64,000 nucleotides of DNA from Enterobacter phage vB_Ent31: the sequence record OR567511.1; one strand, written 5' to 3'. Each line of letters opens with the position of its first letter. The stretch's first letter is position 1. Under the pieces are notes generated by a model that worked only from the letters and a program-made list of their open reading frames with translations, did no database searches and had not been told where the DNA came from. Shown here piece by piece: positions 6,052 through 43,545 of this stretch. The translations under genes and the position numbers were made by a program.

Positions 6052-6366
6052 TTAATCCAGCGAATCGAGGTCGTAACCTAGTTCACCGAGTCTTTCTTTT
6101 ATTGTTCTTAGATTTGGGTAATATACACCACCGAGGACAACGACCGGGTAATTGACGCGCTTGCTTGGGAAAACTCCTGAGGCTTTAGCGGCTTCTTCAA
6201 TCGCCTTGTAGTTGTATTGGACGTCACCGGCCATGTAGATAACGTCGATGAACTCATACGGAATTTTGAATTCGTCAAAAATTTCTTTGACTGCTGCGCA
6301 ACCAGCGCAGCGATAGACGTCTTCCGGAATTCCATAAATTTTAGCTCTTAGTTGTGAGTTTTCCAT
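6052..6366 (-). CDS. nrdH: glutaredoxin-like protein (NrdH/Grx family, CxxC)
   Basis: KIYGIPEDVYRCAGCAAVKEIF... has the CxxC active site and a glutaredoxin fold pattern. Sits in the T4 nrdH position next to nrdG/nrdD. Start chosen at MENSQ. Confidence 0.7.
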   Translation of the reverse strand: MENSQLRAKIYGIPEDVYRCAGCAAVKEIFDEFKIPYEFIDVIYMAGDVQYNYKAIEEAAKASGVFPSKRVNYPVVVLGGVYYPNLRTIKERLGELGYDLDSLD

Positions 6367-37961: not shown

Positions 37962-38037
37962 TGGTGCCGATTGCAGGAGTCGAACCCGCGGCATCTTCAT
38001 TACAAGTGAAGCGCTCTACCAGCTGAGCTAAATCGGC
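37962..38037 (-). tRNA. tRNA-Thr (anticodon TGT)
   Basis: Reverse complement GCCGATTTAGCTCAGCTGGTAGAGCGCTTCACTTGTAATGAAGATGCCGCGGGTTCGACTCCTGCAATCGGCACCA has canonical arms and encoded CCA. Confidence 0.9.
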
Positions 38038-38039
38038 TT

Positions 38040-38137
38040 AAGACGGAAATAAGGATTCGAACCTTATGTAGTTGCACAGACGTATCTGCCGTTGAATTCC
38101 TCACTAAGTTTAAGCAACTATTCCCGGGGTCTTAATT
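38040..38137 (-). ncRNA. tRNA-like element / small stable RNA candidate (T arm present, cloverleaf not resolved)
   Basis: Contains TAAGGTTCGAATCCTTA (T arm) and a possible acceptor CGGGAAT/ATTTCCG, but no canonical D or anticodon arm. ~98 nt. Wedged between tRNA-Thr and tRNA-Leu. Confidence 0.35.
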
Positions 38138-38222
38138 TGGTGCATCAAGAGGGATTCGAACCCTCAATCCTTTCGGCGGAAGATTTTAAGTCTTCTGTGT
38201 ATACCAGTTCCACCATTGATGC
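38138..38222 (-). tRNA. tRNA-Leu (anticodon TAA), class II
   Basis: Reverse complement GCATCAATGGTGGAACTGGTATACACAGAAGACTTAAAATCTTCCGCCGAAAGGATTGAGGGTTCGAATCCCTCTTGATGCACCA with long variable arm. Confidence 0.9.
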
Positions 38223-38228
38223 GAAATT

Positions 38229-38313
38229 TGGAGCTAGGAGTGAGATTCGAACTCACGAAGGGATACCCGGCGGATTTGCAATCCGCTGCCTTTGGCCACT
38301 CAGCAACCCTAGC
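38229..38313 (-). tRNA. tRNA with Cys-type anticodon arm (GCA) and discriminator U, but an 85-nt class-II-like architecture (13-nt variable arm)
   Basis: Reverse complement GCTAGGGTTGCTGAGTGGCCAAAGGCAGCGGATTGCAAATCCGCCGGGTATCCCTTCGTGAGTTCGAATCTCACTCCTAGCTCCA. The anticodon arm GCGGATTGCAAATCCG is as recalled for E. coli tRNA-Cys. Confidence 0.7.
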
Positions 38314-38317
38314 AAAT

Positions 38318-38396
38318 TGGTCGAGGTAGAGGGATTCGAACCCGTCGACCTGTGGATTAGAAGTCCACTGCTCTATCCAGCTGAGCTATACCCCGA
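38318..38396 (-). tRNA. tRNA-Arg (anticodon TCT)
   Basis: Reverse complement ...CGGGGTATAGCTCAGCTGGATAGAGCAGTGGACTTCTAATCCACAGGTCGACGGGTTCGAATCCCTCTACCTCGACCA. Confidence 0.85.
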
Positions 38397-38500
38397 GTGT
38401 GTTCAGACAGGACTCGAACCTGTAAGCATGTTCTTGCGGCGTTTTACCACCATCGTCAGCGTATGATTCAATACGCGAACTCAAAAGGTGTTGGACCCCT
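38397..38500 (-). ncRNA. tRNA-like remnant / small RNA candidate (T arm ACAGG-TTCGAGT-CCTGT, no matching acceptor)
   Basis: The T-arm motif sits immediately 5' of tRNA-Arg but a cloverleaf could not be completed. Could be a T4 rnaC/rnaD-type stable RNA or a pseudo-tRNA. Confidence 0.25.
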
Positions 38501-38535
38501 TGTCTACCAATTTCAGCACTGAACAACTTTATTTA

Positions 38536-38763
38536 TTACATATCAACTTGTGTAAACCAGTTGATTTTGAAATACTCATCAAAATGAAGAGCAGGCTCAA
38601 CTTGAGTATCCTCCTCAAGAAGAATTAAATTCTTTCTTACAAGAGGGTCAAGATGAGTTGTGTTTAAGCAACTATCATGCCAATATGTAAGTACTCTATT
38701 AGATTCGGCGGTATCAACAAGATAACGAACATTCATATCAGGATGTCGGTACAGATTAATCAT
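38536..38763 (-). CDS. hypothetical protein (75 aa)
   Basis: ORF track. Confidence 0.45.
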   Translation of the reverse strand: MINLYRHPDMNVRYLVDTAESNRVLTYWHDSCLNTTHLDPLVRKNLILLEEDTQVEPALHFDEYFKINWFTQVDM

Positions 38764-38766
38764 AAT

Positions 38767-39216
38767 CTATTTCTCTTGAAGCATTTTGCGTAAACGATAG
38801 AGCTGATTACAAAATTCTTTTTCAGTCAAAACTGTTTCGGAGATTTTGTTCTTGCCCATACTGTGAGTTAATGTTGCGTTACGAGTGGCAATTAATGCTT
38901 TTTGGAATCCAGTGTTTTGAGAAAGTGCATCATATGCTCCAGTTAAAAGATTCTGGTATGCTTCAGATGCTCGATGAATAGGAACACCCTTCCAATAAAG
39001 GGTTTGAGTAGGCCACCAACGTTTCTTCTTGCCTTTGAACTTTGCTGCCTTTCCAACTAAAGTGCAAACATGAGCTTGCATTTCAGGGTTAGAAAATTTG
39101 AGGGATTGTAAGAATCCCTCCATTGATGCACATTCTACATCATCGTAAACGAAAGCATGTGGTGCAAAGTTACTTAAAGCACAAGAAGGATATGAACTTC
39201 CAGAGCCAATGTCCAT
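38767..39216 (-). CDS. hypothetical protein (149 aa)
   Basis: ORF track. Confidence 0.5.
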   Translation of the reverse strand: MDIGSGSSYPSCALSNFAPHAFVYDDVECASMEGFLQSLKFSNPEMQAHVCTLVGKAAKFKGKKKRWWPTQTLYWKGVPIHRASEAYQNLLTGAYDALSQNTGFQKALIATRNATLTHSMGKNKISETVLTEKEFCNQLYRLRKMLQEK

Positions 39217-39447
39217 TTAATTACCGTGAGATATTCTAGAAGGTTTCTTACCAAAATAATATTCATATGAGCCATCTAAACGACCTGCTTTAGTGCGGCA
39301 ATATGAATCCCGTTTCTTATAATGCCGCCATTCATCATTGTATCTTGGACGACGGTCAGCGATTAAAATCTCTAATGGCCAACCAGGCGCAAAGGAACGG
39401 AGCCGTTCGACTTTTCTAATGTATCTTTTCTTTAAGATTTTCTTCAT
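39217..39447 (-). CDS. hypothetical basic protein (76 aa)
   Basis: ORF track. Arg/Lys-rich. Confidence 0.45.
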   Translation of the reverse strand: MKKILKKRYIRKVERLRSFAPGWPLEILIADRRPRYNDEWRHYKKRDSYCRTKAGRLDGSYEYYFGKKPSRISHGN

Positions 39448-39665
39448 ATAGATTCCGACATTACGTGAGTAGTTCTCTTTCTGATTGTAAATTGAGTTAA
39501 TTCATCAACTTCACCACAACGCCAAGCGTCATCTTCAGTTTCAAAACCAAGAGCCTCAAATAGGTTACCTAAACGCCAACCTTCGTCAAACTCGGGGTCT
39601 CCTGAAAAATAGTAATAGTAATCGGCAGTTACTAAATCTTGAATTACAAAATCAAACTTTTCCAT
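39444..39665 (-). CDS. hypothetical acidic protein (73 aa)
   Basis: ORF track. Confidence 0.45.
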   Translation of the reverse strand: MEKFDFVIQDLVTADYYYYFSGDPEFDEGWRLGNLFEALGFETEDDAWRCGEVDELTQFTIRKRTTHVMSESI

Positions 39666-40162
39666 CAGATACTTACCACAGTAATAGCTTCAGGAGCTTT
39701 AGGAATAACGATATCTTCTTCGATGTAGAAGAGCTTAAATTTTTCAGCTACACGCATGAAGTCAGTATCATAACCAACTGGAGTTCCAATCAATTCTTGG
39801 ATTTTATCCATCACTTTATACTGAACTTGATAGAAATCTTCAAGACGAGCATCGAATTCATCTTCAGTATAATTGCCTTCTGGGATTACAAAGCCAAGCA
39901 CTTCTGAACAGAACTCTGGAGTGATTTCTTCATTTTCAACACAATATTCAAAGAAAGCATCACCGGAATAATCTTCGTTACCCATTCCATTAGGGTCTGA
40001 ATTATCAGACGCGAAACATTTCGCAACGGCACACCAACCTGAAATGTGTCTAGCATTTACATTATAAATCACATTCTCTTGATAATCATCGCCGTCGTTT
40101 TCCCATGATACACATGATACTGCATAGCCTTTAGGGATAGTTTGACCAAAGCGGAGTTCCAT
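39665..40162 (-). CDS. hypothetical acidic protein (165 aa)
   Basis: ORF track. Confidence 0.5.
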   Translation of the reverse strand: MELRFGQTIPKGYAVSCVSWENDGDDYQENVIYNVNARHISGWCAVAKCFASDNSDPNGMGNEDYSGDAFFEYCVENEEITPEFCSEVLGFVIPEGNYTEDEFDARLEDFYQVQYKVMDKIQELIGTPVGYDTDFMRVAEKFKLFYIEEDIVIPKAPEAITVVSI

Positions 40163-40172
40163 AATATTTCCT

Positions 40173-40577
40173 TCAATTAAATGGTGGAAGTGGTTTCATG
40201 TACAAATCTATCAACATACGCCATTTAGCAATTACTTCAGCATACGTATCATTGCATAAAAATCGTGTGATGTCAGAATAATCAATTGCTGGTAGCGGAG
40301 TTAAATGATTCATCAATTCGCGAGGAAATTGATTAAAGCATTTCATCATATCTTTGTAAACATAATCAAGTAAGTCTTGAACAGAGAAGAACTCAGTGTT
40401 TCGTCCTTCTTTGGAATACCGATATTTCAGAAATTTCCAATGGCCGGAGTCTCTGTCTTGAGTGAATGCGTAGTCACTATGTAACATGACATTACGAACT
40501 AAATCTTCAGAGAAGAAGATGGAGTGAGTGCAACCATAATAAATCATAATATTTTCCTCAGAATTTGGTGGCCCCAT
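40173..40577 (-). CDS. hypothetical protein (134 aa); 5' end abuts/overlaps the 3' end of tRNA-Met
   Basis: ORF track. Confidence 0.45.
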   Translation of the reverse strand: MGPPNSEENIMIYYGCTHSIFFSEDLVRNVMLHSDYAFTQDRDSGHWKFLKYRYSKEGRNTEFFSVQDLLDYVYKDMMKCFNQFPRELMNHLTPLPAIDYSDITRFLCNDTYAEVIAKWRMLIDLYMKPLPPFN

Positions 40578-40641
40578 CCGGATTCGAACCGAAAACCTAC
40601 CAGTTATGAGCCGGGTGCTCTACCAATTGAGCTATAGGGCC
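40566..40641 (-). tRNA. tRNA-Met or Ile2-type (anticodon CAT)
   Basis: Reverse complement GGCCCTATAGCTCAATTGGTAGAGCACCCGGCTCATAACTGGTAGGTTTTCGGTTCGAATCCGGATGGGGCCACCA. The GGCCC acceptor resembles lysidine-type Ile2. Confidence 0.8.
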
Positions 40642-40665
40642 AAAGTCCTCCGAAGAGGACGAATG

Positions 40666-40890
40666 TTATTCAACCATGAAATCTGCTACTTCATCAAAGT
40701 CGTTATCAATAACAACAGTAAATGGCAGAGCTTCATCGCTTGTTTTGATAGTCAGCTTAACGAAGCCATCGACAGTTTCAACCAAACCTACAATTTTATC
40801 AGAACGTACTACAGCACGAGCTACGTCAACAATTTTACCAGTCAGTGCAAATGTAGCGATTTGGTTAACTTCAACAACGATACGTTTCAT
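40666..40890 (-). CDS. hypothetical protein (74 aa)
   Basis: ORF track, with promoter at 40902-40935. Confidence 0.5.
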   Translation of the reverse strand: MKRIVVEVNQIATFALTGKIVDVARAVVRSDKIVGLVETVDGFVKLTIKTSDEALPFTVVIDNDFDEVADFMVE

Positions 40891-40931
40891 TCTTTTTCCT
40901 TAGTGGTTTTGATGTAGTAATAATAACATCA

Positions 40932-41489
40932 TTATTTTAAAGCGTAATATCTGAACGGATTGATATGAAATGATAACATTGCTCTGTCATTCTTTTCAGG
41001 CTTATCAACTTCAGATTTCAGTTTCCACCCACAGTAAACTCGTAAGCAGAATTGAATTTTTCCAATTTTAAGCCAAGGCTGATATCCAAATACACCCCAA
41101 GCTGATTCATTCCACATAAGCAACCAACCGTTAGATTTACCGTTAGATTCTACAGTCGGATTGCCCTTCCATTTAAACTCTGAAGTAGCTTCTCGTCCAA
41201 GAACATAATAAGCAAAGTTATATGCTTTATTTCGCCATAGCCATGCTACGCGTTGCATATATTTTCCAACGATCGGAATTTTACGAATCTTTTCCCAGCG
41301 CTTAACATGACCGCCATCTCCGTCAATTGGATTATCAAATGTCATCATCCAATTGAATCCATATGGAAGTTTTCCGCTAACTTCATTATAGAATGGAACT
41401 ACAAATGGAGCAAGCAAAATAGCTAGCACGCCAGTAATCCAATCAAGTGGTACAAGAACAATATAACTTAAGTATTTTAGCAGTTTCAT
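40932..41489 (-). CDS. membrane-anchored hypothetical protein (~185 aa; start moved to MKLLKYL)
   Basis: The ORF-track start at 41591 overlaps tRNA-Phe, so the internal Met at ~41489 was used. One N-terminal TM helix. Trp/Tyr-rich. Confidence 0.5.
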   Translation of the reverse strand: MKLLKYLSYIVLVPLDWITGVLAILLAPFVVPFYNEVSGKLPYGFNWMMTFDNPIDGDGGHVKRWEKIRKIPIVGKYMQRVAWLWRNKAYNFAYYVLGREATSEFKWKGNPTVESNGKSNGWLLMWNESAWGVFGYQPWLKIGKIQFCLRVYCGWKLKSEVDKPEKNDRAMLSFHINPFRYYALK

Positions 41490-41556
41490 AGTAGTCTCCT
41501 TTGACACTCTATTTATGCTAAAAAGCCCGAACAGATTTCTCTGCTCGGGCGTTGTT

Positions 41557-41631
41557 TGGTGGGAAGTGTTGGAATCGAACCAACCTCTCATGCTCTTCAG
41601 GCACGCGCTAATCCATCTCAGCTAACTTCCC
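41557..41631 (-). tRNA. tRNA-Phe (GAA)
   Basis: Reverse complement GGGAAGTTAGCTGAGATGGATTAGCGCGTGCCTGAAGAGCATGAGAGGTTGGTTCGATTCCAACACTTCCCACCA. Confidence 0.85.
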
Positions 41632-41632
41632 T

Positions 41633-41709
41633 TGGTCTCCATACGAGGATTTGAACCTCGGACCCTCTGGTCCCAAACCAGATGCTCTACCAGACTGAGC
41701 TACACGGAG
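41633..41709 (-). tRNA. tRNA-Pro (TGG)
   Basis: Reverse complement CTCCGTGTAGCTCAGTCTGGTAGAGCATCTGGTTTGGGACCAGAGGGTCCGAGGTTCAAATCCTCGTATGGAGACCA. 1-nt spacer to tRNA-Phe, so a dimeric precursor is likely. Confidence 0.85.
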
Positions 41710-41803
41710 ATATTTTTCAGGATGGACGCCACTCTACATTTATGGGTCGAGTCTCCATCATAAAACGTCACGGTCCTCGGCGATTTTCCGTGGTCTGAAA
41801 ATT

Positions 41804-41878
41804 TGGAGCATCCAGAGAGAATCGAACTCTCATCTACTGGGTGGAAGCCAGTCATAATAGCCGCTATACGATGGATGC
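41804..41878 (-). tRNA. tRNA-Gly (TCC)
   Basis: Reverse complement GCATCCATCGTATAGCGGCTATTATGACTGGCTTCCACCCAGTAGATGAGAGTTCGATTCTCTCTGGATGCTCCA. Confidence 0.85.
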
Positions 41879-41883
41879 AAATT

Positions 41884-41958
41884 TGGCAGGCCCTGAAGGA
41901 ATCGAACCCTCATCACTGGGTTTGGAGCCCAGCATAATAGCCGTTATACTAAGAACCT
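41884..41958 (-). tRNA. tRNA-Trp (CCA)
   Basis: Reverse complement AGGTTCTTAGTATAACGGCTATTATGCTGGGCTCCAAACCCAGTGATGAGGGTTCGATTCCTTCAGGGCCTGCCA. Discriminator G. Confidence 0.85.
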
Positions 41959-41964
41959 GTTATT

Positions 41965-42040
41965 TGGTGGGAGTAACTGGACTCGAACCAGTCACCGCTC
42001 GATTATCGGTCGAGAGCTCTACCAAATGAGATATACTCCC
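41965..42040 (-). tRNA. tRNA-Ile (GAT), copy 1
   Basis: Reverse complement GGGAGTATATCTCATTTGGTAGAGAGCTCTCGACCGATAATCGAGCGGTGACTGGTTCGAGTCCAGTTACTCCCACCA. Confidence 0.8.
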
Positions 42041-42106
42041 ATGGAAAGCTAATCATCTAATTGTTGATGTACCACTGCTATGGACAGTGTTTAACTTTCA
42101 TAAATT

Positions 42107-42191
42107 TGGCGGAGAGTAAAGGAGTTGAACCCTCACCGTTTCCGATGGCCCGGATTTCAAGTCCGGTTTGCTACCACTAGCGCTACTCTCC
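42107..42191 (-). tRNA. tRNA-Ser (TGA), class II
   Basis: Reverse complement GGAGAGTAGCGCTAGTGGTAGCAAACCGGACTTGAAATCCGGGCCATCGGAAACGGTGAGGGTTCAACTCCTTTACTCTCCGCCA. Confidence 0.85.
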
Positions 42192-42197
42192 AGTATT

Positions 42198-42283
42198 TGG
42201 TGAAGGAAGTGTCATATAGACACAATTCGCTTAGCGACAGCCACAGCGTTTTGCGGGCCGTGTATTTTTCCACCATTCCTTCA
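42198..42283 (-). ncRNA. tRNA-like small stable RNA candidate (86 nt, acceptor GAAGGAA/TTCCTTC + ACCA, non-canonical T loop)
   Basis: Reverse complement TGAAGGAATGGTGGAAAAATACACGGCCCGCAAAACGCTGTGGCTGTCGCTAAGCGAATTGTGTCTATATGACACTTCCTTCACCA. Paired termini and an internal GTGTC/GACAC hairpin, but no TTCRA T loop. Same strand and spacing as the flanking tRNAs. Confidence 0.4.
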
Positions 42284-42287
42284 TTGT

Positions 42288-42363
42288 TGGGGTGACCGGA
42301 CGGATTTGAACCGTCGACGGCAGCAATCACAATGCTGAGTTCTACCAACTGAACTACGGCCAC
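42288..42363 (-). tRNA. tRNA-His (GTG)
   Basis: Reverse complement GTGGCCGTAGTTCAGTTGGTAGAACTCAGCATTGTGATTGCTGCCGTCGACGGTTCAAATCCGTCCGGTCACCCCA. Discriminator C. Confidence 0.85.
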
Positions 42364-42455
42364 ATCAATATTCACTCCATCATGAGGACTTCATACGAAA
42401 TTAAGAGAAGAATGATTAGTTCAACCCCTGTAGACGCGTTGAATGAATATTAATT

Positions 42456-42530
42456 TGGCTGGACTATCTGGATTCGAACCAGAGATACCGGAGTCAAAGG
42501 CCGGTGACTTAACCGCTTGTCTATAGTCCA
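42456..42530 (-). tRNA. tRNA-Gln (TTG)
   Basis: Reverse complement TGGACTATAGACAAGCGGTTAAGTCACCGGCCTTTGACTCCGGTATCTCTGGTTCGAATCCAGATAGTCCAGCCA. Similar to E. coli tRNA-Gln. Confidence 0.85.
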
Positions 42531-42536
42531 ATTGTT

Positions 42537-42612
42537 TGGAGGCGGGTGATGGACTCGAACCATCGCGTAACGGGATATGAACCCGTCATTCTACCAACTG
42601 AAGTTAACCCGC
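42537..42612 (-). tRNA. tRNA-Met-type (CAT), second CAT tRNA (GGG/CCC anticodon stem)
   Basis: Reverse complement GCGGGTTAACTTCAGTTGGTAGAATGACGGGTTCATATCCCGTTACGCGATGGTTCGAGTCCATCACCCGCCTCCA. Confidence 0.75.
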
Positions 42613-42770
42613 ATTTATCCGGGTTCTTGAAGTACTAACAAGTAGCTTGATGTAGAACACGCTAAAGATATAATCTTCCGAATATAGAGCTTATCCCGTG
42701 GGAACAAACAGCTTCGTCCTCGGCATTATCTTATAGGACTCAAACTCATCTTCAAGAACTGCCTCATATT

Positions 42771-42847
42771 TGGCAGTGCTGACGGGTTTCGAACCCGCGA
42801 TCTCTCCCGTGACAGGGGAGTGTCTTGACCATCTCGACTACAGCACT
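42771..42847 (-). tRNA. tRNA-Asp (GTC)
   Basis: Reverse complement AGTGCTGTAGTCGAGATGGTCAAGACACTCCCCTGTCACGGGAGAGATCGCGGGTTCGAAACCCGTCAGCACTGCCA. Confidence 0.85.
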
Positions 42848-43093
42848 ATAAATTTACTTTCGTGAGTATGGGATTACCCTCAAGCCTTCCGGAAAGCTGA
42901 ATAGGCGTTATTGGCTCTCATATACCCGTGCACAGATATAATCTTCATTAACACAATAACTTCATCAATATACTCCGAAAGTAAACTTTCGGCGCCGTAT
43001 TTAATTTGAGCTATGTGGTTATCGTTGAGGGAACTCATAGTCAGGGATTAAAGTGCCGACGACTTTGTCAGAACGTCTTCCAACTTCTATATT

Positions 43094-43178
43094 TGGCGGG
43101 TCGTGCAGGTATCGAACCTGCCTAGTCATTTCTGACACGGATTAACAGTCCGCCGCTTACCCTCTCAGCCAACGACCC
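43094..43178 (-). tRNA. tRNA with Asn-type anticodon arm (GTT) and discriminator G, but 85 nt with an extra 15-nt variable stem-loop
   Basis: Reverse complement GGGTCGTTGGCTGAGAGGGTAAGCGGCGGACTGTTAATCCGTGTCAGAAATGACTAGGCAGGTTCGATACCTGCACGACCCGCCA. The anticodon arm GCGGACTGTTAATCCGT is as recalled for E. coli tRNA-Asn. Confidence 0.7.
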
Positions 43179-43184
43179 TAAATT

Positions 43185-43259
43185 TGGTTCTCCGTAAGAG
43201 AATTGAACTCTTCTTTCCGACGTGAAAGGTCGGCGTCCTAACCGATAGACGAACGGAGA
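43185..43259 (-). tRNA. tRNA-Glu (TTC)
   Basis: Reverse complement TCTCCGTTCGTCTATCGGTTAGGACGCCGACCTTTCACGTCGGAAAGAAGAGTTCAATTCTCTTACGGAGAACCA. Confidence 0.85.
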
Positions 43260-43260
43260 T

Positions 43261-43337
43261 TGGTAGGACACGAAAGATTCGAACTTTCGACACCCGGATT
43301 AAAAGTCCGGTGCTCTAACCAGCTGAGCTAGTGTCCT
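43261..43337 (-). tRNA. tRNA-Lys (TTT)
   Basis: Reverse complement AGGACACTAGCTCAGCTGGTTAGAGCACCGGACTTTTAATCCGGGTGTCGAAAGTTCGAATCTTTCGTGTCCTACCA. 1-nt spacer to tRNA-Glu. Confidence 0.85.
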
Positions 43338-43375
43338 GTAGATATTTATAATATCAAAAATATCTTTAAGCAAAT

Positions 43376-43451
43376 TGGTGGGAATAACTGGACTCGAACC
43401 AGTGACCTAACGATTATCGGTCGTTTGCTCTACCAACTGAGCTATATTCCC
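43376..43451 (-). tRNA. tRNA-Ile (GAT), copy 2 (diverged duplicate of 41965..42040)
   Basis: Reverse complement GGGAATATAGCTCAGTTGGTAGAGCAAACGACCGATAATCGTTAGGTCACTGGTTCGAGTCCAGTTATTCCCACCA. Confidence 0.8.
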
Positions 43452-43457
43452 GGAATT

Positions 43458-43545
43458 TGGTGGGGAGTGATGGAGTCGAACCACCCGAGTCGCAATGACA
43501 ACAGATTTACAGTCTGCACCGCTACCTCTACGGAATTAACTCCCC
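43458..43545 (-). tRNA. tRNA-Tyr (GTA), class II
   Basis: Reverse complement GGGGAGTTAATTCCGTAGAGGTAGCGGTGCAGACTGTAAATCTGTTGTCATTGCGACTCGGGTGGTTCGACTCCATCACTCCCCACCA. Confidence 0.85.

Follow-up and report, generated by a model that had tools for sequence, protein, structure and literature searches.

Long variable arms in bacterial tRNAs are, according to the textbooks, limited to tRNA-Leu, tRNA-Ser, tRNA-Tyr and tRNA-Sec, and such an arm counts as an identity marker. The gene at 38229-38313 in Enterobacter phage vB_Ent31 (a T4-like phage of the genus Karamvirus; sequence record OR567511.1, of which the window, the whole stretch analyzed, has 64,000 nucleotides (nt)) combines such an arm with the anticodon arm of a tRNA-Cys, and the question is what kind of tRNA this makes. 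A preliminary description of the locus had called the gene chimeric-looking and had left two readings side by side: a tRNA-Cys with an unusual insertion, or a body like that of a tRNA-Ser with an acquired Cys identity, potentially mischarging or regulatory. We consider it probable, at roughly three chances in four, that the gene encodes a functional phage tRNA-Cys that would be charged by the cysteinyl-tRNA synthetase (CysRS) of the host and would act in the ordinary way, and not a mischarging chimera. The gene as such is already routinely annotated as tRNA-Cys; what appears to be new is the structural variant.

ARAGORN called a tRNA-Cys(GCA) with a complete cloverleaf on the minus strand, at exactly the coordinates that had been given. 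The covariance-model check that had been proposed, made here with the general tRNA model of Rfam (RF00005), yielded a score of 48.0 bits (E = 3.7e-7; gathering score 29), and all of the features that characterize the RF00005 cloverleaf are present. Parsed by hand, the RNA reads GCUAGGG UU GCU GAGUGGCCAAA GGC A GCGGA UUGCAAA UCCGC in its 5' part and CGGGUAUCCCUUC GUGAG UUCGAAU CUCAC UCCUAGC U CCA in its 3' part (Table 1). ARAGORN, Rfam and the hand parse thus agree with the description of an 85-nt tRNA with anticodon GCA, U73, a D stem of three base pairs (bp) and a 13-nt variable hairpin. The fold implied by the strings quoted earlier for the variable arm and the acceptor stem was right, but the 14 letters given for the former include G49 of the T stem, and the 3' acceptor string includes the discriminator. 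The variable region has the long-arm, class-II architecture, i.e. at least 10 nt arranged as a stem-loop (here 13 nt, with a 3-bp stem and a 3-nt loop). RNAfold recovered the acceptor, anticodon, variable and T helices (minimum free energy -30.1 kcal/mol, z = -1.78). An alternative fold of the canonical 76-nt length was sought with ARAGORN and RNAfold, and none was found.

The identity elements of the molecule point to cysteine. The GCA anticodon and U73 are the dominant determinants for CysRS (PMC5389517; also textbook knowledge), and both are present. In addition, the anticodon arm equals that of E. coli cysT at 16 of 17 positions, which bears out a resemblance that had been pointed out earlier. 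The elements of serine identity are mostly missing: the variable stem has 3 bp instead of around 5-7 bp, position 73 is a U instead of a G, and the second acceptor pair is C2:G71 instead of G2:C71, which leaves C11:G24 as the sole element present among G73, G2:C71 and C11:G24. For tyrosine, C35 and U73 are found where the main determinants are U35 and A73. The size of the arm was compared as well. The medians for variable region and stem were 14 nt and 3 bp for long-armed tRNA-Cys, 14 nt and 3 bp for tRNA-Tyr and 13 nt and 4 bp for tRNA-Leu, as against 18 nt and 6 bp for tRNA-Ser (fetched viral loci, n = 114); the window's own tRNA-Ser has a 5-bp variable stem. The arm is therefore Tyr/Leu-sized and not Ser-sized. 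Within the fetched viral loci the discriminator was U in 49 of 49 tRNA-Cys, A in 36 of 36 tRNA-Tyr, A in 79 of 79 tRNA-Leu and G in 99 of 114 tRNA-Ser.

The rest of the molecule leads in the same direction. When the anticodon arm and the variable region were left out of the comparison, the bodies of the class-I phage tRNA-Cys came closest (identity 0.69 at the median, 0.79 at the 90th percentile and 0.87 at most), and the values for the other phage isotypes were 0.65 (Ser), 0.59 (Tyr) and 0.58 (Leu). One near neighbor, a class-I tRNA-Cys from IMG/VR (locus L157), has the D arm GCA-GAGUGGCCCAA-UGC-A, U73, a 6-nt variable loop (AAAACC) and a T arm identical to that of the phage gene (GUGAG-UUCGAAU-CUCAC). 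The tRNA-Cys of the Pectobacterium jumbo phage CBB (L004, 192-266) is a class-I counterpart of this body type: its D arm, CCU-GAGUUGGCUUAA-AGG-A, is close to that of the candidate, its anticodon arm is the same and its variable loop counts 5 nt. The 3-bp D stem had been taken as a class-II mark, a view that does not hold, as it is found also in the tRNA-Cys of E. coli, T5 and most class-I phages; together with a purine13.A22 combination it is usual in tRNA-Cys (A13.A22 in cysT, G13.A22 in T5 and in 62 of the 89 class-I phage tRNA-Cys). Judged from these comparisons, the most fitting description of the molecule is a tRNA-Cys body in which the variable loop has apparently turned into a hairpin (1 nt, then 3 bp with a loop of 3 nt, then another 3 nt, in place of the usual 4-6 nt). 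The first of the two earlier readings, a tRNA-Cys with an unusual insertion, is thus supported by the class-I tRNA-Cys nature of the nearest bodies and by the Cys identity set, and the second, a Ser-like body, fails on the missing G73, G2:C71 and 5-7-bp stem and on the same nearest bodies.

The comparison with related T4-like phages, likewise proposed at the outset, recovered the 85-nt gene in 34 phage records, with 100% identity in 18 and 97.6-98.8% in 11 more, and wherever an annotation is present it reads tRNA-Cys. The surrounding region in these phages (listed for most) is 90-99% identical, mostly 90-96%, and for the 18 records with an identical gene the surrounding 5.7 kb show 92-99% identity where listed. 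This tRNA region is 99.0% identical to that of EnC07 and 90-98% identical to those of PG7, Pet-CM3-4 and other members. The gene is accordingly more conserved than its surroundings. A more distant copy, in Escherichia phage EcS1 (Kagamiyamavirus), has 85% identity and keeps all helices by compensated changes. In place of GCGGA/UCCGC it has the anticodon stem CUGGA/UCCAG, with pairs 27:43 and 28:42 changed on both sides, and in place of GGG/CCC the variable stem AGC/GCU. Both wobble pairs of the candidate are Watson-Crick pairs in relatives: G7.U66 is A-U in EcS1 and G-C in one IMG/VR variant, and U12.G23 is C-G in EcS1. In phage RZH two extra bases (+AU) are confined to the loop of the variable hairpin. 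In an alignment of five family members, in which most changes come from one lineage, 99.1% of the cells were paired, compared to 39-55% with slid partners; it contains four double-sided pair changes (two in the anticodon stem and two in the variable stem), every change keeps or improves a helix, and GCA and U73 are constant. The compensated changes indicate that the helix of the variable arm is under selection. Every related copy that was read at the sequence level, namely those of EcS1 and RZH and the variants from IMG/VR, has GCA as well. Thus 38229-38313 is a real, selected phage tRNA gene and not a product of chance or a sequencing artefact.

The long-armed form is not restricted to this family. 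We scanned IMG/VR for a Cys anticodon arm followed by a spacer beyond class-I length and a T loop, and obtained 83 loci, 80 of which ARAGORN called tRNA-Cys(GCA) of 81-92 nt. Reduced to distinct sequences, these are 51 long-armed viral tRNA-Cys whose acceptor, D and T stems differ widely. The search pattern included none of the three features that all 51 share, namely U73, an acceptor stem of 7 bp and a T stem of 5 bp. Their variable regions measure 10-20 nt; in 37 cases they fold into a hairpin with 3 bp or more, compared to 21.8 +/- 2.9 in shuffled sequences (maximum 31 over 1000), and among them are 21 kinds of stem sequence and 20 or more GNRA loops. A cultured example is the Pseudomonas jumbo phage D6; a BLAST search with the commonest IMG/VR long-armed tRNA-Cys among cultured phages gave no match. 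The class-I spacer version of the scan returned at least 120 loci, so class-I tRNA-Cys is no rarer, and genes with the long arm are the minority. Among the 120 control loci listed, long arms on normally class-I isotypes were seen in 15 of 31 tRNA-Ile and one tRNA-Thr, and in no tRNA-Cys or tRNA-Asn.

Cellular genomes contain the same architecture. Around 110 of the 120 loci among the matches listed belonged to Phycisphaerae or other Planctomycetota, and the Phycisphaerae genes lie on complete chromosomes as well as on contigs of metagenome-assembled genomes. These chromosomal tRNA-Cys comprise 113 distinct sequences, with U73 in 117 of the 121 matches listed and without an encoded CCA. An example reads GGCCGCG UG CCC GAGUGGACUAA GGG G GCGGA UUGCAAA UCCGC in its 5' part and UGAGCUUGCUCAAC GUGGG UUCGAAU CCCAC CGCGGCC U in its 3' part. 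The genes are solitary; among the matches listed, 52 loci share one upstream gene and 18 are flanked by a MoxR-type AAA ATPase. The loci are L214-L333, for instance L223 at 6198-6280. To judge from these genes, the long-armed form appears to be the normal tRNA-Cys in Phycisphaerae, and considering that the gene is cellular and vertically inherited, CysRS evidently works with the long-arm architecture there. The sequences compared gave no evidence of direct descent, in either direction, between the phage and the Phycisphaerae tRNA-Cys. We found no account of a long-armed tRNA-Cys or tRNA-Asn with a 7/5 acceptor-T branch, from phages or Planctomycetota, in the searchable literature, a scope outside which subscription journals fall. 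A survey of cyanobacterial tRNAs places Cys and Asn among the isotypes with a short variable loop, and an eLife paper on phage tRNA escape nowhere mentions the variable region, Cys or Asn.

A second gene of the window, 43094-43178, had been reported to show the same pattern with an Asn arm, and this was indeed found: its anticodon arm equals that of asnT at 17 of 17 positions, and GUU and G73, the identity pair for the asparaginyl-tRNA synthetase (AsnRS), are both present. It reads GGGUCGU UG GCU GAGAGGGUA AGC G GCGGA CUGUUAA UCCGU in its 5' part and GUCAGAAAUGACUAG GCAGG UUCGAUA CCUGC ACGACCC G CCA in its 3' part. Relatives occur in 634 phage records, which include around 280 T5-like phages as well as Klebsiella T4-like, Serratia, Proteus and Phapecoctavirus phages. 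On viral contigs we found 72 distinct long-armed tRNA-Asn, mostly with stems of 3-4 bp and GNRA loops; of the 68 whose acceptor stem is well paired, 66 carry G73. Many start with UCC...GGA-G, like the canonical bacterial tRNA-Asn, and 24 have C2:G71. In EnC07, 99% identical in this region, the Asn site holds a 76-nt class-I tRNA-Asn and the adjacent tRNAs for Glu and Lys are missing. The class-I and the long-armed tRNA-Asn are thus swapped as cassettes in one genomic background, which argues for the same job.

Long arms were also seen on other isotypes. ARAGORN called tRNA-Ile (UAU where checked) with a variable region of around 24 nt and A73 at IMG/VR loci L011-L213 (21 distinct sequences); a relationship to the allo-tRNA(UAU) that Mukai et al. 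described is possible, but ARAGORN calls them as standard cloverleafs. Scattered long-armed tRNAs for Thr, Lys, Glu, Met, Trp and Gly occurred mainly on contigs with a long-armed tRNA-Cys or tRNA-Asn. The reverse was observed as well: at loci L011-L443, around 24-33 of the 61-82 phage tRNA-Leu per locus set are 73-78 nt long, with the arm apparently lost.

In functional terms, the tRNA-Cys would be transcribed within the minus-strand tRNA cluster and excised by the tRNA-processing enzymes of the host, its CCA being already encoded. Host CysRS would then charge it with cysteine via the GCA anticodon and U73, and it would decode UGU and UGC in phage protein synthesis, supplementing the tRNA-Cys of the host, the gene for which is probably single-copy in E. 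coli K-12. CysRS would have to tolerate the arm. As a class-I synthetase it binds the D-arm side of the L-shaped tRNA, and the variable arm may thus be left in the solvent. A flexible loop of 13 nt would destabilize the tertiary core, which may be why the arm is kept in helical form.

Several points weigh against this explanation. We infer charging by CysRS from the identity elements. The core to which E. coli CysRS is sensitive in its own tRNA consists of G15:G48 and A13:A22; the candidate has G15:C48 and G13:A22 instead. This caveat is not specific to the long arm, given that the class-I tRNA-Cys of T5 (A15:U48, G13:A22) and most class-I phage tRNA-Cys lack G15:G48 too. Of six E. coli K-12 tRNA genes used for comparison (Cys, Asn, two Tyr, Ser-CGA and Leu-UAA), moreover, the nearest to the molecule as a whole is tRNA-Tyr (61 of 85 positions, against 48 of 85 for tRNA-Cys), and the candidate and E. 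coli tRNA-Tyr have the same layout of the variable arm (C, 3 bp, a 3-nt loop, 3 bp, UUC). The label 'chimeric-looking' was fair to this extent, although both main Tyr determinants and most of the Ser ones are missing. It is possible that the arm was copied by recombination from a tRNA-Tyr instead of having arisen by insertion. BLAST against 5,426 E. coli genomes gave six weak matches, all to unusual tRNA-Tyr genes. Descent of the whole tRNA from a tRNA-Tyr (by U35C and A73U) was considered and is unproven, as the bodies of the class-I phage tRNA-Cys are closer. Nor does U73 strictly exclude the seryl-tRNA synthetase (SerRS): it occurs in 10 of the 114 viral tRNA-Ser, and Mukai et al. (PMC5389517) count both G73 and U73 as compatible with serylation of allo-tRNAs. 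Finally, an ordinary tRNA-Cys does not account for the retention of the arm.

This last point is what a counter-defence role would address. The arm on tRNA-Cys, and likewise on tRNA-Asn, might block a tRNA-targeting nuclease of the host, or one that the phage induces and that destroys host tRNAs; the tRNA would still decode Cys and keep its host-identical anticodon arm, which the synthetase and the modification enzymes of the host would still recognize. We regard this as rather unlikely, and the wider proposal, that long arms on class-I phage tRNAs at large (Cys and Asn, and elsewhere Ile-UAU, Thr, Lys and others) serve against nucleases such as AriB of the PARIS system, as unlikely to at least the same degree. 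Phage tRNAs do escape tRNA-cleaving immune nucleases (PMC12409363). AriB cuts the E. coli tRNAs for Lys (UUU), Thr (UGU) and Asn (GUU) between positions 40 and 41 while also reading the D loop, and the substitutions in T5 tRNA-Lys that act against it lie at positions 16 and 41 (PMC12409363). Our phage carries all three target isoacceptors, among them tRNA-Lys(UUU) (43261-43337, minus strand) with C16 and C41 and tRNA-Thr(UGU) (37962-38037, minus strand) with C16 and G40. Both are thus changed at the positions (16 and 40/41) at which the T5 substitutions are reported to act, G40 being located at the 40/41 cleavage site. The long arm comes out next to the anticodon stem's 3' strand, where AriB cuts. 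The anticodon arm of the long-armed tRNA-Asn is host-identical, while in T5 and EnC07, where tRNA-Asn is of class I, the anticodon stem is altered. Furthermore, long arms on class-I isotypes co-occur on the same contigs, with an odds ratio of around 21 (p = 2e-5) for the loci with long-armed tRNA-Cys and of around 44 (p = 5e-12) for those with long-armed tRNA-Asn, both relative to the control, which suggests a pressure on the whole tRNA set. This co-occurrence could equally result from shared ancestry or relatedness of the contigs, recombination among clustered tRNAs or isotype errors of ARAGORN. The searchable literature yielded no enterobacterial nuclease that targets tRNA-Cys, the long-armed tRNA-Cys of EcS1 lacks a host-like anticodon stem, and the cellular tRNA-Cys of Phycisphaerae has the same design, where evasion has no obvious motive. 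The T5 tRNA-Asn used in the PARIS experiments was considered as a representative of the long-armed type and was rejected, as the T5 reference shows a 78-nt class-I tRNA-Asn and a 76-nt tRNA-Cys. Given that both are of class I, the PARIS rescue data and the notes on T5 amber suppressors do not apply to the long-armed tRNAs. If the role were true, it would add a structural escape route to the published point substitutions in the anticodon loop and stem, and a new mechanism for why phages carry tRNAs.

The chimera of the preliminary description, a class-II tRNA of the Ser or Tyr type with a Cys anticodon arm that is charged by SerRS or the tyrosyl-tRNA synthetase, or that acts as a regulator, is very unlikely. 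It is favored by the way in which SerRS recognizes its tRNAs, through the long variable arm and without regard to the anticodon. Besides the overall likeness to tRNA-Tyr, the presence of C11:G24 speaks for a chimera, as does the fact that bacterial allo-tRNAs, which combine a long variable arm with non-Ser anticodons, can be serylated, with U73 being compatible (PMC5389517). Set against this are the short variable stem, half the 6 bp that form the viral tRNA-Ser median, the C2:G71 and U73 that take the place of G2:C71 and G73, the absence of A73 and U35 for Tyr, and the body closest to class-I tRNA-Cys. Conversion of E. coli tRNA-Tyr to Ser identity reportedly required both G73 and a lengthened arm (Himeno 1990). 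The constancy of U73 in the 51 viral sequences and in nearly all Phycisphaerae copies listed is what selection by CysRS would give. Moreover, ARAGORN found no second tRNA-Cys in the window, and with the sole tRNA-Cys of the phage a change from Cys to Ser across the proteome would be damaging. The suspicion of a mistranslating chimera is thereby removed for the window.

A role of the RNA outside translation is, if anything, slightly less probable still: it might occupy a nuclease or a synthetase as a decoy or sponge, or be a stable tRNA-like RNA that takes no part in decoding. Stable tRNA-like RNAs with no assigned function do occur in the clusters of T4-type and T5-type phages (annotation of T5), tRNA-like fragments flank the sub-cluster to which the gene belongs, and competitive inhibition by overexpressed viral tRNAs is an idea put forward in the PARIS paper (PMC12409363). 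The features needed for translation are nevertheless intact and conserved, including the 7/5 branch, the T loop UUCGAAU, G18G19, the 7-nt anticodon loop with U33 and A37, U73 and the CCA, and a decoy would not need them all. A pseudogene in decay, or an ordinary tRNA-Ser(GCU) misread through an assembly or base-calling artefact, to which the Rfam score below that of most neighboring tRNAs might be held to point, is refuted by the identical gene in 18 independently sequenced phages, the GCA in every copy read, the conserved U73 and stems of the viral copies and the compensated and helix-improving changes in the alignment, the lower score being what the short variable loop of the general model would lead one to expect (the window's genuine tRNAs for Leu, Ser and Tyr score 59, 32 and 39 bits).

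The gene lies in a cluster of 20 tRNA genes on the minus strand (37962-43545), 19 of which were found by ARAGORN and all 20 by Rfam; the one found only by Rfam is the class-II tRNA-Tyr (Table 1). That gene is labelled 'tRNA-Pseudo-GTA' in one relative, and has a G.U pair in the T stem and an unusual D arm. The tRNA-Ser(UGA) at 42107-42191 (minus strand) scored 32.3 bits with the general tRNA model and 36.5 bits with the tRNA-Sec model, under the threshold of the latter, and its T stem (GAGGG/CCUUU) contains three weak pairs of the G.U/A.U type. Flanking the Arg-Cys-Leu sub-cluster are tRNA-like leftovers at 38038-38137 and 38396-38450 (both on the minus strand) with the T-arm-like motifs AAGGTTCGAATCCTTAT and CAGGTTCGAGTCCTGTCTGAACA; they gave only weak matches to Y-RNA-like (YrlA) RNAs (E about 0.1), and in EcS1 a similar motif stands directly before the tRNA-Cys. 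These leftovers may be degenerate tRNAs, or stable tRNA-like RNAs as annotated in T5. A low-threshold Rfam scan found nothing besides tRNAs, and in promoter and terminator scans around the cluster the promoter-like sites were no more frequent than expected by chance.

Table 1. Position and composition of the long-armed tRNA-Cys gene, its parts and related tRNA genes of the cluster.
Feature	Position	Strand	Description
tRNA-Cys(GCA) gene	38229..38313	-	85 nt including encoded CCA; 7/5 cloverleaf with long variable arm; ARAGORN, Rfam RF00005
Acceptor stem, 5' strand	38307..38313	-	GCUAGGG, positions 1-7; pairs with 38233-38239; 7 bp, one G7.U66
D arm	38288..38304	-	GCU-GAGUGGCCAAA-GGC; 3-bp stem, G13.A22, G15; hand parse and ARAGORN drawing
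Anticodon arm	38270..38286	-	GCGGA-UUGCAAA-UCCGC; 5-bp stem; anticodon GCA at 38277-38279
Variable region	38257..38269	-	CGGGUAUCCCUUC, 13 nt; C, GGG/CCC stem (38266-38268 with 38260-38262), loop UAU, then UUC
T arm	38240..38256	-	GUGAG-UUCGAAU-CUCAC; 5-bp stem; hand parse, ARAGORN, RNAfold
Acceptor stem, 3' strand, with U73 and CCA	38229..38239	-	UCCUAGC 38233-38239, U73 38232, encoded CCA 38229-38231
tRNA-Arg(UCU)	38318..38395	-	upstream neighbor of tRNA-Cys; 4-nt spacer; ARAGORN, Rfam
tRNA-Leu(UAA)	38138..38222	-	downstream neighbor of tRNA-Cys; 6-nt spacer; ordinary class II, A73
tRNA-Tyr(GUA)	43458..43545	-	class II, A73, same cluster; Rfam 39.1 bits; missed by ARAGORN; tRNA-Tyr in the annotation of relatives
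tRNA-Asn(GUU)	43094..43178	-	long-armed, G73; 15-nt variable hairpin GUCAGAAAUGACUAG; Rfam 49.8 bits; ARAGORN

What stands out is that plain 7/5 tRNA-Cys and tRNA-Asn bear the long arm together with their own identity elements, and that they do so in many unrelated phages. If CysRS and AsnRS charge these forms, the divide between class I and class II would be more permeable than assumed, and annotation pipelines and isotype models should expect them. In that case they would also provide natural scaffolds for the addition of a helix to a tRNA without a change of identity, which would be of use in tRNA engineering.

Of the known tRNAs, the class-I tRNA-Cys (E. coli cysT, T5, IMG/VR L157) have in common with the phage gene GCA, U73, the 7/5 acceptor-T branch, the 3-bp D stem, the purine13.A22 and a large D loop; these have 4-6 unpaired variable nucleotides instead of the 13-nt hairpin, and E. 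coli tRNA-Cys has G15:G48 where the candidate has G15:C48. The class-II tRNA-Tyr of E. coli (tyrT/tyrV) resembles it in length (85 nt), U8U9, the D loop GAGYGGCCAAAGG and A26, but has U35 and A73 instead of C35 and U73, as well as different acceptor and T stems. The tRNA-Cys of Phycisphaerae are alike in the 7/5 branch, GCA, U73, G13.A22, G15:C48 and a variable hairpin (12-16 nt, with 2-5 bp), and differ in being cellular genes with a conserved synteny, without an encoded CCA and with other acceptor and T sequences.

The selC* tRNA-Cys described by Mukai et al. in 2017 is a working cysteine tRNA with a long variable arm, U73 and a GCA or UCA anticodon, which is charged by CysRS (PMC5389517) and so sets a precedent for the charging proposed for the phage tRNA. 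It differs in its 8/4 acceptor-T branch, its longer anticodon stem, its mimicry of tRNA-Sec and the associated selB* and cysS* genes (PMC5389517), whereas the candidate is a plain 7/5 tRNA within a phage tRNA cluster; its 7-bp acceptor stem and 5-bp T stem, as in the 51 viral copies, set it apart from the 8/4 or 9/3 branch by which selC* tRNAs and allo-tRNAs are recognized. The allo-tRNAs and the nev-tRNAs of nematodes also combine a long variable arm with an anticodon outside the Ser/Leu/Tyr set, but they have Ser or Leu identity sets and are mistranslating or inactive, the allo-tRNAs having in addition an 8/4 or 9/3 branch. In the phage tRNA, by contrast, the identity set matches the anticodon, i.e. 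Cys, and the arm stays below the size of that of a tRNA-Ser.

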